Shown here: in pieces, positions 8,901-53,409 of the stretch | How the letters are laid out: the number at the start of each line of letters is the position of its first letter | How positions within the stretch are numbered: the stretch's first letter is position 1 | Source of the DNA: Chiloscyllium plagiosum | Taxonomy: Eukaryota | DNA: 64,000 nucleotides | Direction of reading: 5' to 3' | NCBI RefSeq assembly: GCF_004010195.1 | Contig: NW_025215380.1 | Location: forward strand, 108,428 to 172,427 | Translations under genes and position numbers: made by a program | Notes under the pieces: generated by a model | Told to the model about the DNA's origin: nothing | The model's input: the letters and a program-made list of their open reading frames with translations, nothing else | Databases searched by the model: none

Positions 8901-9181
8901 AGATGAATTGGTGCACACACACACAGTACACCAAACATCTTATTGACTCAGATCTGTAAATTAAAACGTGTTAAGACATATACATACTGTAAACAAGATT
9001 TCTCCTTGGCTCAGATTTATGTATTGAATAAATAGATAAACGGACACATATACACCGCACCGAGGGCCTTCTCTCGGTCTCAGATTTATGAATTAAGGCG
9101 ATTCCAGCCTGATGTTGCGGTCTGTGCTATCTAGTGGTTAAAGGGTCTGGAGTTGCTGAGTTTTAATGAAGAGGCACTGAC

Positions 9182-10226
9182 CTGCTGCTGCTGCCCGGCT
9201 CCTGTTGCCTCCCGCGGGGGTTTCTCTCTGGCTCTCCCCGGGTTGTTGGTACCGGGAGCTGCCCGGGACACTGTCCGGCTCCGGGCTGCCGGCTTCCTGC
9301 TGCAGGGCCGCCCTGATACCGGCCAGGAGCCGGGGGAAGGTGAGCCTCCCGCTCGGCGCTGCTGCTCTCCGGAGGCAGCCCATCAGCCCGGGAGGTAGCG
9401 CCGCCTCCCTCCGGCCTTCCCCCGGCCAGCGGCTCTCTATCTCCCGCAGCTCGACCGAGCCCCGACCCTCCTGGTCCAGGATGTCGAACAGGGTCCGCAG
9501 GCTGTGCAGGAACGAGCGGGGCTCCGGGTCCCGGGGATGGGGCTTCCTTGCATTGGGGTCCCTGGGGCTGAGGGCCTGGGGAAGGGGGTCTATGGGATGG
9601 GGGTCCCTGGGGTGGGGGTGGGGTCTCTGGGATTGGGGTCCCTGGGATGGGAGTCTCTGGGATTGGGGTCCCTGGGATGGGAGTCTCTGGGATTGGGGTC
9701 CCTGGGATGGGAGTCTCTGGGATTGGGGTCCCTGGGATGGGAGTCTCTGGGATTGGGGTCCCTGGGATGGGAGTCTCTGGGATTGGGGTCCCTGGGATGG
9801 GAGTCTCTGGGATTGGGGTCCCTGGGATGGGAGTCTCTGGGATTGGGGTCCCTGGGGGTGGGGGCTATGGGATAGGGGTCCCTGAGATGGGAGTCTCTGG
9901 GATTGGGGTCCCTGGGATGGGAGTCTCTGGGATTGGGGTCCCTGGGGTGGGGGTCTATGGGATAGGGGTCCCTGAGATGGGAGTCTCTGGGATTGGGGTC
10001 CCTGGGATGGGAGTCTCTGGGATTGGGGTCCCTGGGGTGGGGGTCTATGGGATAGGGGTCCCTGAGATGGGAGTCTCTGGGATTTGGGGTGGGGGTGGGG
10101 GTCTATGGGATTGGGGTCCCTGGGGTTGGGGTCCCTGAGGTGGGGGTGGGGGTGAAGTTCCCGGGACAGTGGGTCCCGGTGCAGTCTCGGCCGGTTCTCC
10201 CGGTGCAGCTCCTCGGGCCGGCTCAT
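9182..10226 (-). CDS. SAPCD2-like: First coding exon of a suppressor-APC-domain (SAPCD1/SAPCD2 family) gene
   Basis: PRSFLHSLRTLFDILDQEGRGSVELREIESRW..LPPGLMGCLRRAAAPSGRLTFPRLLAGIR closely resembles the human SAPCD2 N-terminus (PRAFLQSLRTLFDILD..LREIESRW..APASGYLTF). ATG at 10226, CpG-rich, donor CAG|GTCAGT after 9182 (phase 1). Later exons not identified; paralog identity uncertain. Confidence 0.88.
9631..10080. repeat. 30-bp G-rich minisatellite (GATTGGGGTCCCTGGGATGGGAGTCTCTGG) x15 with 90-bp higher-order structure
   Basis: Directly visible; lies inside the SAPCD ORF. Confidence 0.97.
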
Positions 10227-36941: not shown

Positions 36942-37460
<519 letters not shown>

Positions 37461-39930: not shown

Positions 39931-40611
39931 ATGGCTTCGGGCGACCTGATCGAAGGTTCTTCCCGGGGCAGGAAGGGGCGGCGGCGGAGGAGCGCGCCCA
40001 AAGTGCGGCAGGTAGCGGCCGCTGGCGGGGGAGTTCCTACCATGTCCGGGCACATCCTGGAGGCGGTGGGGTCTTCCCGGGACCGCCGCGGCCTCTCGCT
40101 GGCCGGCGTCAAGAAGGCGCTGTCGGCCGCCGGTTACGACGTGCCGCGAATCAATTCGCGGGTGAACCAGGCGGTGCGGAGCCTGGTGTCCACCGGCTCG
40201 CTGCTGCGGACGGCAGGCGCCGGGGCATCGGGTTCCTTTAAAATCAACCGGCAGCACCATCCGGAGGGTCAGAACCGCCCGGTGGCAGCAGCAGCGGCCG
40301 CCGCTAACCCCAAGTCTCGGGGTCGGCAGCGGAAAGCCGCCACCACCCGCGGCAGGAAGAGGAGCCCGGGACGGAGGAAGAAACCGCCGCCAGGCGGCCG
40401 GAAGAAGGGCAGGGCCGCCGGCGGACGGAGGAAAGCGGCCAAAGGGACCGGGGTCCGGAGACCCGGTGGTCACATTCGGGCGGCCCGGAAAGCGACCAAG
40501 GAGCCGTTGCCGGGCGCTGAGCCGCCGCCCGGGGGGCAGGAAGCTCAACCACAGACGGGAGCAGGAGAGAGCGGCTCCGAGGAGGCTGAGCCAGGGGCTG
40601 GGAAGCGCTGA
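39931..40611 (+). CDS. H1: Divergent Arg-rich histone H1-family protein A (226 aa)
   Basis: Winged-helix domain ILEAVGSSRDRRGLSLAGVKKALSAAGYDV..NSRVNQAVRSLVSTGSLLRTAGAGASGSFKIN; intronless; stem-loop 37 nt after the stop. Confidence 0.96.
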   Translation: MASGDLIEGSSRGRKGRRRRSAPKVRQVAAAGGGVPTMSGHILEAVGSSRDRRGLSLAGVKKALSAAGYDVPRINSRVNQAVRSLVSTGSLLRTAGAGASGSFKINRQHHPEGQNRPVAAAAAAANPKSRGRQRKAATTRGRKRSPGRRKKPPPGGRKKGRAAGGRRKAAKGTGVRRPGGHIRAARKATKEPLPGAEPPPGGQEAQPQTGAGESGSEEAEPGAGKR

Positions 40612-41820: not shown

Positions 41821-41957
41821 GACTCTTCTTCAGCACTCAACCCCCACCTCTCTAGTTGTTACACTTGCAAAGTTACAGCCCCGACGCTGTCCCTCGCTAT
41901 GATTTGTGCGATTTGGACACGGGGCACACAATGGGAATTGAGGATTTCCTATCCTTC

Positions 41958-41965
41958 ATTTGCAT
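41958..41965 (+). promoter_or_regulatory. Octamer (ATTTGCAT) H2B promoter element
   Basis: Perfect octamer about 115 nt upstream of the H2B ATG; the octamer is the known vertebrate H2B subtype element. Confidence 0.7.
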
Positions 41966-42077
41966 GGAGCTGAGAATATCAGGGTTGACCCGGGACAGCG
42001 GCGCTGGTCTGTCTCTTCCTCGCCGTGGCTTGAAAGAGCTCGACTTTCCCGAGAGGAGGCAGCCGCCAGAGTCCATC

Positions 42078-42557
42078 ATGCCGACCACCGCCTCCTCTTC
42101 GTCGTCCGCCGCCGCCTCCTCCTCAGCCGCTTCGTCGGCCGCCATCTCTGCCTCGTCTTCGACAGGGGTGACCGGTGCCGCCAAGGGCGCCGTCTCCAAG
42201 AAAGGCTCAAAGAAGACGGCGATGAAGATGTCCCGCCGGGGGGCGGCGAGCGACCGGAGGCACCGCCGGAACCGCCGCCGGGAGAGCTACAGCCTCTACA
42301 TCTACAAGGTGCTGAAGCAGGTGCACCCCGACACCGGTATCTCCTCCAAGGCTATGAGTGTCATCAATTCGTTCGTAGGCGACATCTTCGAGCGCCTGGC
42401 CGCCGAGGCCTCCCGCCTGGTCCACTACACCCGGCGGCAGACCCTGTCCTCCCGGGAGATCCAAAGCGCCGTCCGCCTGCTGCTCCCCGGGGAGCTGGCC
42501 AAACACGCCGTGTCCGAGGGCACCAAGGCGGTCACCAAATACACCAGCTCCAAGTAG
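42078..42557 (+). CDS. H2B: Histone H2B variant with extended N-terminal tail (159 aa)
   Basis: ATG 42078; fold [51 protein letters not shown]; stem-loop downstream. Confidence 0.97.
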
Positions 42558-45762: not shown

Positions 45763-46530
45763 ATGGCCGACACCCTGGCGGCCCGAAAAAAGGGCAGGAA
45801 GGGTAAGGCCCTGCCACCGCCCCCCTCCGCCGCCCGGAGCAGCTCCACAGTGTCCGAGCGCATCCTGGAGGCGGTGGCGGCGGCCGGTACCAAGAAGGGC
45901 CGCCGCGGTCTGTCGCTGGCCGCCCTCAAGAAGTTGCTGTCGGGCAACGGCTACGACGTGGCGGCCAACCGCTGGCGGCTCAAGCAGGCGGTCCGCAACT
46001 TGGTGGCCAAGGGCTCCCTGGTGCAGACCTCGGGCAGCGGCGCCTCGGGCTCCTTCAAGCTCGGCAGCACCAAGGCGCAGAGGGAAGCGGAGACCGCCGT
46101 CCGCGGCGCCGAAAGCAAGAACAAACTGAGAAGGGGTGGCGAGATGCTGCCGTCTCCGCCGTCTTCCGCCAGCTCCTCCGCGGCCGCCCACCCGCCCATC
46201 GGCGCCGCCTCCGTCTCCAACCGGCGCAAACCCCGGAAGCCCGCCGCCGCCAAGAGACCCAAGAGGAGCGTGGCGCCCAAAAAGACCAGGCCGAGGTCCG
46301 GCAGAGTCGGCAGGAGAGAACCGATGGGCCGCCGCACCGCCAGGGGACCCAAGCCCGGGAGGAAGGCGGCAGCTAGGGCCGGCCCTCGGAGAGCCAAGCG
46401 CCGGCCGGCCAAACCCAGGAAAGCGGCCAACACCCTGGAGGAAGCGAGTAAACACCCGTCTCAGGAAGAGGTCTCCGCCTCGGCGAAGGCAAACCAGGGC
46501 GGCTCGGACACACAGAACAGCAGCAGCTGA
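45763..46530 (+). CDS. H1: Divergent Arg-rich histone H1-family protein B (255 aa)
   Basis: ATG in good context (GTCATGG); VSERILEAVAAAGTKKGRRGLSLAALKKLLSGNGYDV..LVAKGSLVQTSGSGASGSFKL; TTTAAATA box at 45643-45650. Confidence 0.96.
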   Translation: MADTLAARKKGRKGKALPPPPSAARSSSTVSERILEAVAAAGTKKGRRGLSLAALKKLLSGNGYDVAANRWRLKQAVRNLVAKGSLVQTSGSGASGSFKLGSTKAQREAETAVRGAESKNKLRRGGEMLPSPPSSASSSAAAHPPIGAASVSNRRKPRKPAAAKRPKRSVAPKKTRPRSGRVGRREPMGRRTARGPKPGRKAAARAGPRRAKRRPAKPRKAANTLEEASKHPSQEEVSASAKANQGGSDTQNSSS

Positions 46531-47897: not shown

Positions 47898-48398
47898 ATG
47901 CCGAAGGTGCGCCGAGCCTTGGCCGGCAGTGCGGCGGCCAGGAAACAGCAGCAGCCGCCGCCTCCGACTCCTCCTCCTCAGCAGCAACAGGAGCCGCTAC
48001 GGCCTTACCGACGCCAGCGGCGTCAGGAGTTGCGGATCTCGCAGCTGATCCTTCAGGCGCTGTCTGCCCGCAAGCAGCGGGGGGCCCTGTCGCTCACCTC
48101 CCTCCGCAAGGCGCTGCTGGCCAGGGGCTACGACGTGGAGCGCAACAAGGACAAGGTGCAACTCGCCATCCAGAGCCTGGTCAACAGCGGCTCGCTGGTG
48201 CAGACCACGGCCACTGGCTCCCTCAAGCTCAGCGCCGGCCACAAGGAGGGGGCCAAGCCGCCTCCGACCGCAGCCCTGCTCCCGGCCAAGGAAGGGGCCG
48301 TTTCCGCCTGCGCCAGGGAGGAAGCCCAGCCACCCGACAAGAAACCCCGCAAGAGACGGGGCGAGAGGAAGCCAAGGCCGAGGAAGACCAGGAAGTGA
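47898..48398 (+). CDS. H1: Divergent short histone H1-family protein C (166 aa)
   Basis: ISQLILQALSARKQRGALSLTSLRKALLARGYDVERNKDKVQLAIQSLVNSGSLVQT; TTTAAA box at about 47843; stem-loop downstream. Confidence 0.94.
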   Translation: MPKVRRALAGSAAARKQQQPPPPTPPPQQQQEPLRPYRRQRRQELRISQLILQALSARKQRGALSLTSLRKALLARGYDVERNKDKVQLAIQSLVNSGSLVQTTATGSLKLSAGHKEGAKPPPTAALLPAKEGAVSACAREEAQPPDKKPRKRRGERKPRPRKTRK

Positions 48399-52084: not shown

Positions 52085-53098
52085 TCAGTATCTCCTCTGG
52101 CGGACGCCCAGCTTCTTGCCCCGGGATACCCGCGGCTTCCCGCGGGAGCCGCCGTACCCGGGCACCCTCCGGCCGCGGTGACGGGCCGCCGGCCTGTACT
52201 TGCCGTAGAGCCGGGCCGGCCTCCGGGCGGGAGACGGGTAGTAGTAGTAATAGTAGGTGGCCACGGAGGGAGAAAGGCTGGAGCTGGTCTTCAGGCGGAC
52301 GCTCTTGGCCCGACCCCGGCGGCCGGTGGCGGTGACGCGCGGTTTGCGGCGGCCTCTTCTCCCCCCGTCGCGGCGGGAGCGGGCTCGCTGCTGCTGGCGG
52401 CGGCGGACAGTCCGGACGGTCACCTTCCGACCCTTGGAACCTGCTCCCGTCCAAGTCCCTCCTCCGGCGGCGCCCACGGTGTCTCTGCGCCGGGTGGACT
52501 TCTTCCGGAGGCGGGCCGGTGGCGACCTCCGGGAGACGGGGTTTTGGTGCCGGCGTTTGACCGCCCCACGTTTCTTCTTGGCTTTGTCCTTGTCCTTGTC
52601 CTTCTTTAAGCCGCTGCTGCCGCCGCCTGCACCTCCGACACCGACGGCGGAGCGGTTGAAGCGGAACGAGCCCGAGGCGCCGATGCCCGCCGTCTGCACC
52701 AAGGAGCCGTTACGGACCAGGTTCTTCACCGTCTGGTTGACCCGCGTGTTGTTGCGGCTCACGTCGTAGCCCTTGGCCGAGAGAGCCTTCTTGAGGGCGG
52801 CCAGCGAGATGCCCCGCCGCTCTTTGGTGGCGGCGGCGACCTGCAGGATCTGCTCGGCTATGGTGAGCTCCTTCTTCTTGCGGCGCTGCGGACAGCGGGG
52901 CTGGGGCTGCTGCTGTTGTTGCAGATTCTGCTGCTGCGTCTGGTTCAACTGCTGCGGTTGTTGCTGCTGCTGCTGGGTTTGCTGCTTCTTCTTCTTACCC
53001 GCCCCCTTCTCGGCGCCTGCTCGAGGGTGCGAGCCGGGCGGCCTCCCCCCTCCACCCGAGTCCCCGGCATCGTCCACCTTCCGGCTGCCGTCGGCCAT
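52085..53098 (-). CDS. H1: H1-family / protamine-like protein D (337 aa): poly-Gln N-tail, winged helix, long Arg/Gly/Tyr C-tail
   Basis: ATG at 53098 (GGCATGG); IAEQILQVAAATKERRGISLAALKKALSAKGYDVSRNNTRV..LVRNGSLVQTAGIGASGSFRFN; stem-loop downstream. Confidence 0.95.
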   Translation of the reverse strand: MADGSRKVDDAGDSGGGGRPPGSHPRAGAEKGAGKKKKQQTQQQQQQPQQLNQTQQQNLQQQQQPQPRCPQRRKKKELTIAEQILQVAAATKERRGISLAALKKALSAKGYDVSRNNTRVNQTVKNLVRNGSLVQTAGIGASGSFRFNRSAVGVGGAGGGSSGLKKDKDKDKAKKKRGAVKRRHQNPVSRRSPPARLRKKSTRRRDTVGAAGGGTWTGAGSKGRKVTVRTVRRRQQQRARSRRDGGRRGRRKPRVTATGRRGRAKSVRLKTSSSLSPSVATYYYYYYPSPARRPARLYGKYRPAARHRGRRVPGYGGSRGKPRVSRGKKLGVRQRRY

Positions 53099-53312: not shown

Positions 53313-53331
53313 CTTTTATAAGGCGGGGGCG
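53313..53331 (-). promoter_or_regulatory. GC box + TATA box of H1-D
   Basis: Minus strand CCGCCCCCGCC-TTATAAAAG. Confidence 0.7.
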
Positions 53332-53409
53332 GACGCAGTGGAAGGAGATCCCGCCTTCTTTCTTCTCTTTCCCCCCACCCCCAAGAAGTCTTCCTCCATC
53401 TCTCCATTA

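Follow-up and report, generated by a model that had tools for sequence, protein, structure and literature searches.

The window, a 64,000-nucleotide stretch of bamboo shark DNA, contains a linker histone gene, H1-D, whose parts and neighbours are listed in Table 1. An earlier note on this DNA had described here a 337-residue open reading frame with a glutamine-rich N-terminus, which was borne out on the minus strand. We searched the genome with the H1-D DNA and found one full-length place, together with a domain-only match to a paralogue. H1-D exhibited the properties of a replication-dependent-type histone gene, namely the lack of introns, a 3' stem-loop and a position inside a histone cluster. 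The stem-loop lies 93 nt past the stop codon, scores 0.7 bits below the RF00032 cut-off (34 bits), and shares 23 identical nt with the stem-loop of the paralogue. When upstream sequences were compared, the GTCCG element next to the TATA box was also found before the paralogue, the canonical H1 genes, both H1.0 genes and H4; we take it to resemble the H4 site II element. Canonical H1 genes carry an upstream AAACACA box. This box was present in all five canonical H1 genes checked and in both H1.0 genes, whereas none was found within 400 nt upstream of H1-D. A repeat of very high copy number starts some 305 nt upstream of the H1-D ATG, near the position where canonical H1 genes have their upstream box.

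Table 1. Features of H1-D and of neighbouring genes, in positions of the window
Feature	Position	Strand	Remarks
H1-D coding sequence	52085..53098	minus	337 aa, intronless; one copy found by DNA search of the genome
H1-D TATA box	53314..53320	minus	ATG 222 nt downstream
GTCCG element adjoining the TATA box, upstream side	53330..53334	minus	also before the paralogue, canonical H1s, both H1.0 genes and H4
H1-D histone 3' stem-loop	51948..51993	minus	RF00032, 33.3 bits, E 5.4e-8
Winged-helix globular domain, residues 80-147	52658..52861	minus	PF00538, E 4.9e-16
Domain stretch near-identical to paralogue	52649..52849		versus C37:34588918-34589183
Interrupted Gln tract, residues 39-66	52901..52984	minus	20 Gln in 28 residues; follows Gly run and Lys run
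Most protamine-like tail window, residues 224-263	52310..52429	minus	17 Arg, 19/40 Arg+Lys
Spacer between conserved RLK and ARLY anchors	52217..52288	minus	24 residues; contains Ser/Pro/Tyr insertion
Six Tyr codons, residues 282-287	52238..52255	minus	TAC TAT TAC TAC TAC TAC
Very high-copy repeat	from ~53403 onward
H1-A	39931..40611	plus	Arg-rich variant; relatives in other sharks
H1-B	45763..46530	plus	Arg-rich variant; relatives in other sharks
H1-C	47898..48398	plus	Arg-rich variant; relatives in other sharks
H4	36942..37253	minus	with stem-loop
Divergent H2B	41931..42557	plus	with stem-loop
ORF with SAPC2_N domain	9138..10226	minus	E 1e-21

The exact H1-D protein has no entry in a collection of 15 billion proteins, and H1-D is not annotated. 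An open frame by itself is little proof for the H1-D tail, since a second reading frame is also open through it. Only the frame given here aligned with the tail of the horn-shark orthologue above shuffled sequences (z 5.0, versus 0.8 and 0.1 for the others). In addition, the GC content at fourfold sites was 0.84 in the H1-D tail and 0.86 in the paralogue. H1-D is an intact, stem-loop-type linker histone gene, and it belongs to an ancient family of cartilaginous fishes whose members have arginine-rich tails.

The H1-D cluster on contig C101975 contains six H1-type genes, a variant H2B, an H2A and two H4 genes. A paralogous cluster on C37 includes the locus (L005) that encodes the paralogue XP_043533748.1 (P0003), and both variant clusters are separate from the many lysine-rich canonical H1 genes on C50. 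The genome further contains two H1.0/H5-type genes, likewise separate, and an H1x-type gene. Even within the window, H1-D is not the only such gene, because the other H1s there are arginine-rich too (Arg/Lys of 33/17, 33/27 and 22/16). The possibility that C37 represents a second haplotype of the window was rejected, as no match of at least 95% was found over 1.2 kb, and the H1-A pair was 89.5% identical over 935 nt.

The globular domain of H1-D matched PF00538 with 59.2 bits (cut-off 22.4). The predicted structure was confident in this domain only (block pLDDT 76-94) and dropped to about 38-50 from residue 151 on, the tyrosine run included. The domain model fitted H1.1 with an rmsd of 0.9 Å (Foldseek) and superposed on H1.4 too. 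H1-D exhibits a tripartite H1 layout, with a basic tail (33% Arg+Lys) that is predicted to be disordered. We then located the residues of nucleosome-binding site I, which consists of K69, R73 and, traditionally, K85 (PMC2685081, available part), in H5 numbering by a hand count along the H1.0 chain 6la2_S. In H1-D, K69 corresponds to Asn121, R73 to Lys125 and K85 to Ala137, and the conserved basic set of site I is therefore not kept, whereas the positions of R42, K52 and R94 stay basic and the GASGS hairpin is retained. All 24 rows of the H1-D clade have Asn at K69 and Ala or Ser at K85, and the remaining 15 of 15 rows of the chondrichthyan clade also lack a basic residue at K85. Outside the chondrichthyan clade, by contrast, Lys or Arg was found at K85 in 117 of 134 rows and at K69 in 98 of 134 (21 of the 194 proteins lacked an anchor and were left unscored). 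Consequently, the earlier description of the winged helix as intact is valid for the fold only, since the K69 and K85 lysines are absent in the H1-D clade. Judging from these alignments, the change at K69 and K85 marks H1-D as a variant with the fold retained. In docking simulations of H5, the K85V substitution shifted the protein off-dyad (PMC6129471, available part).

The N-terminal head had been described as poly-Gln; it is rich in glutamine, but the tract is interrupted. Its order of glycine, lysine and glutamine runs is common to H1-D and to the horn-shark and ray orthologues, and since it is present in P0002 and P0169, this head is at least as old as the split between sharks and rays. 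For the distal tail, the hand count of roughly 40 Arg and 12 Lys proved accurate (41 Arg and 12 Lys in residues 181-337, with 10 Tyr), and the whole tail (residues 149-337) has 43 Arg, 20 Lys and no Cys. RRR clusters and SP sites are present, as had been noted, but there are only two RRR clusters (at 203 and 232) and three S/T-P sites (192, 276 and 289); the longest Arg run is 3.

Somatic H1 tails are rich in lysine, alanine and proline and nearly lack aromatic residues. The tail of H1-D is not of this near-arginine-free kind: Arg/(Arg+Lys) was 0.68, versus 0-0.05 in three canonical H1 tails. However, H1-D is no more protamine-like than its own orthologues, because its tail has equal or lower Arg (23%, compared with 23% in P0002 and 26-28% in P0011, P0034 and P0169) and equal or lower Arg+Lys (33-43% across its subtype). 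Over the whole protein, Arg amounted to 16.3% in H1-D and to a similar 14.3% in P0102, a teleost protein of the protamine-like (PL) type whose nearest Atlas clusters carry the automatic name protamine-like protein. The H1-D tail gave no Pfam match at E ≤ 10, protamine families included; searches with the tail alone found no homologue in the protein collection and no Atlas match, and the genome has no second copy of it apart from itself. A search of the genome with Protamine_P1 gave no match, but it is uninformative, the controls being likewise unmatched. A GRP-containing basic C-terminal motif, found in 14 of the 20 chondrichthyan rows listed (including P0003-P0009), is lost in H1-D. We had presumed this motif to be AT-hook-like; the reading had no Pfam support at E ≤ 10 and was rejected.

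The six consecutive tyrosines and the QRRY end of the protein were both confirmed. In both alignments, the Ser/Pro/Tyr segment of H1-D corresponds to a gap of 14-16 residues in the relatives. The spacer between RLK and ARLY (24 residues in H1-D) is 8 residues long in seven same-subtype rows and 3 in two, and it could be measured in nine of the ten such rows, P0033 lacking an anchor. The run is not conserved among the relatives found: YY occurs in 0 of the 23 relatives of the shark and ray clade, among them the ten same-subtype rows from six species, and YYY was found in H1-D only among the 194 proteins compared. At the DNA level, the run is a TAC triplet repeat with one synonymous TAT and with TCT CCC on either side, and it is the sole run of at least five TAY codons in 376,321 non-N bases examined from the two clusters. 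The gene also carries Gln, Gly and Lys-Asp repeats. An assembly error at this site was ruled out, since an independent contig (contig 18 of sequencing run X4) spans positions 52163-52349 with 0 differences and 0 gaps relative to H1-D. A second X4 contig, which covers the H1-D head, shows a gap of 3 nt that probably falls in the Gln repeat. X4 thus likely carries another allele, and the Tyr stretch is unchanged in it.

The earlier note had named, as the outcome that would undo its reading, orthologues that stop before the Tyr-rich segment because of read-through or a frameshift. Such an origin of the tail was rejected: only frame 0 matches the orthologue, the orthologues continue across the site in frame, and two ray rows end in RRY in the same frame as H1-D. 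In spirit, the objection nevertheless holds, as the run is not conserved. From the aligned sequences, we conclude that the Tyr run is a lineage-restricted in-frame insertion, absent from every relative found, and likely to have arisen by triplet slippage. The proposal that the Tyr/Arg content acts as a mechanism was not supported, as the run, missing in 23 of 23 relatives, sits in an insertion that dilutes charge; the run is likely incidental and not the mechanism of the H1 family. Its invariance in X4 and the synonymous interruption may indicate a lineage-level role. Because the same-subtype orthologues that the protein searches retrieved include none from other carpet sharks, from mackerel sharks or from ground sharks, the horn-shark split alone limits the age of the run, and the run could be common to the carpet-shark order. 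Unless it is conserved among carpet sharks it matters little, and it illustrates well how a triplet repeat can enter a disordered tail.

Relatives were collected by searching a 90% protein collection and its 50% representatives, which yielded the 23 close shark and ray relatives as well as additional rows from chimaeras, sharks and rays. In the domain tree (75 columns, 51 rows), H1-D fell into a starred elasmobranch group (100/98, 21 rows) nested in a starred chondrichthyan group that includes the chimaera rows (99/93, 32 of the 51 rows). In a second tree of 41 rows, from which most near-identical relatives were omitted and to which 11 further rows were added, 16 chondrichthyan rows formed one side of a branch (98/93). 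In the domain-free tree (19 rows), H1-D, P0002 of the horn shark and five ray rows formed one group (84/84, not starred), the other rows being of the P0003 subtype. On the domain tree, by contrast, both horn-shark subtypes were sisters (93/72). From codon 84 on, only 2 of 67 codons differ between H1-D and the C37 paralogue, while the DNA of head and tail cannot be aligned; between H1-D and a paralogue-like contig of another organism, there are 7 differences in 201 bases. These patterns suggest that domain-limited gene conversion between old paralogues has likely occurred repeatedly. We therefore read the orthology of H1-D from the flanks.

Similarity and trees place H1-D among the replication-dependent-type H1s, and likewise the teleost PL-type rows. 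Matches of the domain to H1.1-H1.4 (E 3e-21 to 2e-16) were stronger than those to H5/H1.0 (E 6e-6 to 2.5e-4), with identities of 56-58% to H1.1, H1.2 and H1.4 and of about 30-35% to H5/H1.0. The sequence comparisons disfavour a descent of H1-D from the H5/H1.0 branch, although a grouping with H1.0/H1x was not rejected by the AU test (p 0.119). A sister relation between the H1-D clade and teleost PL-type proteins such as P0031 and P0102, obtained with one PL-type row (95/87) from 75 columns only, dissolved once six such rows were included and was not upheld.

The closest known counterparts of H1-D are elasmobranch proteins with the automatic name 'histone H1-like', namely XP_067865288.1 of the horn shark (P0002), those of rays (P0034, P0169, P0011 and P0171) and the paralogue. 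Their domains are 68-92% identical to that of H1-D (BLASTP, matched part), and they share with it the Gly/Lys/Gln head, an arginine-rich tail with RRKPR, RLK and R-x-Y-R-K anchors, Asn at K69 and Ala or Ser at K85. The Ser/Pro/Tyr insertion and a longer Gln tract are found in H1-D alone, which also lacks the GRP-containing C-terminal motif. The chondrichthyan family of arginine-rich H1s, with H1-D as its Tyr-insertion member, is apparently undescribed: our literature search, whose scope left out most older subscription work on dogfish sperm proteins, found no account of it.

Among proteins of sperm chromatin, the scylliorhinines Z1-Z4 and S1/S2 of dogfish are basic nuclear proteins of shark spermiogenesis that are short and are not known to have a winged helix. 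True protamines have 50-110 residues, up to 80% Arg and no globular domain (PMC13148410, available part), unlike H1-D with its 337 residues and 16% Arg. More similar are the PL-I proteins of molluscs and tunicates and the teleost Mullus PL-I, which combine a winged helix with a disordered Arg+Lys tail containing a protamine-like window. According to the available part of PMC13148410, PL-I proteins are recognised by a winged helix plus a stretch of 30-50 residues rich in Arg and Lys, and such a basic stretch is removed by proteolysis from the PLs of molluscs, tunicates and a liverwort; H1-D has one in residues 224-263 (Table 1). The same text states a descent of PL-I from the replication-independent H5/H1.0 branch, and Mullus PL-I is listed as polyA+ (PMC4584325, available part), whereas H1-D has a stem-loop. 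H1-D appears PL-I-like by composition, as far as the sequence tells, and its fold and gene type are those of an H1. The suggestion of an H1-protamine intermediate is supported to this extent, that H1-D is an H1 with a protamine-like, arginine-rich tail predicted to be disordered and that 17 Arg in a window of 40 residues fit the PL description (PMC13148410, available part). Mammalian H1.6 (H1t) is likewise a divergent H1 inside a histone cluster (PMC8015243, available part) with a replication-dependent-type origin, a likeness of setting; H1-D differs from it in the far longer, arginine-rich tail of 190 residues and in belonging to a chondrichthyan family with several members per genome.

We propose that H1-D would bind chromatin uncut, through a weakened dyad site and a long arginine-rich tail, in male germ cells as their histones are being replaced, and we give this best reading about an even chance. 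With two site-I lysines gone, the winged helix may hold the nucleosome dyad more weakly or off-dyad, and the long, predictedly disordered tail (net charge +75) could neutralise and bridge DNA through arginine. A weak hold on the dyad together with such a tail would suit a variant that acts at the stage when nucleosomes come loose and other proteins take the place of histones; in the bamboo-shark lineage only, the two SP sites and the aromatic residues of the insertion could tune phosphorylation or condensation. The placement in the male germ line follows from the PL-like make-up (PMC13148410 and PMC4584325, available parts), the fast evolution of the tail and the precedent of H1t (PMC8015243, available part). 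Sperm basic proteins tend to evolve fast, and sharks use PLs, according to passages of PMC13148410 (the latter citing Bloch 1976). Against this placement, however, the long H1-D branch fits relaxed selection too, and arginine enrichment also marks the erythrocyte histone H5 (PMC4584325, available part).

The branch of H1-D in the domain-free tree (1.09, versus 0.03-0.04 for the carpet-shark paralogues) would also be expected if H1-D were a redundant duplicate under relaxed selection with little or no expression, its domain kept by gene conversion and its Gln, Gly, Lys-Asp and Tyr repeats expanding freely. The near-identity to the paralogue past codon 84 between unalignable flanks, the loss of the GRP-containing motif, the high-copy repeat upstream of the ATG and the missing annotation are consistent with this possibility. 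The X4 contigs of H1-D, which lie between just below the TATA box and just past the stem-loop, also had a depth of only 3.4-12.5, compared with 137.8 for the paralogue contig, although contig depth is a poor measure and no conclusion on expression was drawn from X4, since its run type is unrecorded and contigs cannot show RNA ends or levels. Nevertheless, the several insertions are all in frame without a stop, GC at fourfold sites is close to that of the paralogue, the TATA box and stem-loop are intact, and the subtype is retained in the horn shark and five ray species, which makes a decayed duplicate unlikely.

We also consider it rather improbable that the H1-D family consists of specialised somatic, oocyte or embryonic linker histones, such as an H1 that compacts nucleated erythrocytes in the manner of H5 or a cleavage-stage H1, in which case the Tyr run would be incidental. 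Arginine enrichment is an H5 feature, the stem-loop is of replication type, and paralogue-like contigs occur in three runs of unlabelled tissue; among the four runs searched of 19 listed, X1 and X2 (another organism, guessed to be RNA, small shares searched) contained paralogue-like domain contigs only. In run X8 (polyA single-cell, tissue unlabelled, about 2/100 of the run), no reads fell on H1-D except on the Gln repeat. PolyA data capture stem-loop mRNAs poorly (PMC8857922, available part), and with polyA selection and unlabelled tissue the X8 result says nothing on the expression of H1-D. The two H1.0/H5-type genes and the H1x-type gene already in the genome, the greater closeness of the domain to H1.1-H1.4 and the missing AAACACA box argue against such a role. 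Finally, it is highly improbable that H1-D is a protamine precursor that loses its Arg/Tyr tail by cleavage in spermatids, with tyrosines condensing or cross-linking instead of Cys bridges, since, despite the PL-sized basic window, a tail with 10 Tyr and no Cys, a Tyr run that stays identical in X4 where the Gln-bearing contig has a gap, and, as weak evidence, a sole interruption that is synonymous, the run is missing in all 23 relatives, the Tyr-bearing end is poorer in Arg (14 of the last 68 residues, 21%) than the window upstream, no Arg run exceeds 3, the tail matched nothing in Pfam, the tail searches, the Atlas or elsewhere in the genome, and dogfish sperm protamines are short, encoded by their own genes and in several cases Cys-rich.

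The reading of H1-D as an uncut germ-line linker histone could be extended to a far bolder one, which we regard as very unlikely. Cartilaginous fishes would keep a dedicated, duplicated germ-line histone cluster (arginine-rich H1s without dyad-binding lysines, together with variant H2B and H4) as an intermediate between H1 and protamine that still lives on at the base of the jawed vertebrates; in bamboo-shark H1-D, a newly selected aromatic 'sticker' of six tyrosines and flanking SP sites would in addition tune how the chromatin of spermatids phase-separates, whether or not the tail is released. The case for an H1 origin of protamines comes from molluscs, tunicates, spiders, a liverwort and a small number of teleosts (PMC13148410 and PMC11607694, available parts). 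The arginine-rich, site-I-deficient H1 family of sharks, rays and chimaeras, in its own cluster, provides named candidates for testing the transition in the earliest-branching jawed vertebrates. Protein transitions have been described in the spermiogenesis of S. canicula, and the shark testis is zoned by stage (PMC11607694, available part). The family and its cluster of variant histones are more interesting than the tyrosines of H1-D.

Several other genes were observed in these regions. The ORF with the SAPC2_N domain, which follows a long tandem repeat of 10 residues, is probably the first exon of a SAPCD-family gene; an MHC-linked or HIST1-like position of the window, considered from this gene, was dropped, since neither is mentioned in the available part of PMC10751288. 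H1-C has a shortened wing and an orthologue in Hemiscyllium. The divergent H2B has a long N-terminal extension, rich in Ser and Ala and then in Arg, and translation more likely begins at its second ATG (159 aa); two further divergent H2Bs lie on C37. Variants of H4 are unusual. The H4 of the window differs from the common solved H4 by four substitutions (Ile for Val, Ser for Ala, Arg for Lys and Leu for Met), the first two of which are also present in the C37 copy. H1-derived genes with degenerate domains were found on C101975 near 195,000-200,100 (L042) and on C37 near 34,538,000, 34,567,000 and 34,596,600. One of them lacks the GASGS wing, and a pair of 184 and 179 aa, seemingly without much of helix 3, has stem-loops in both members.
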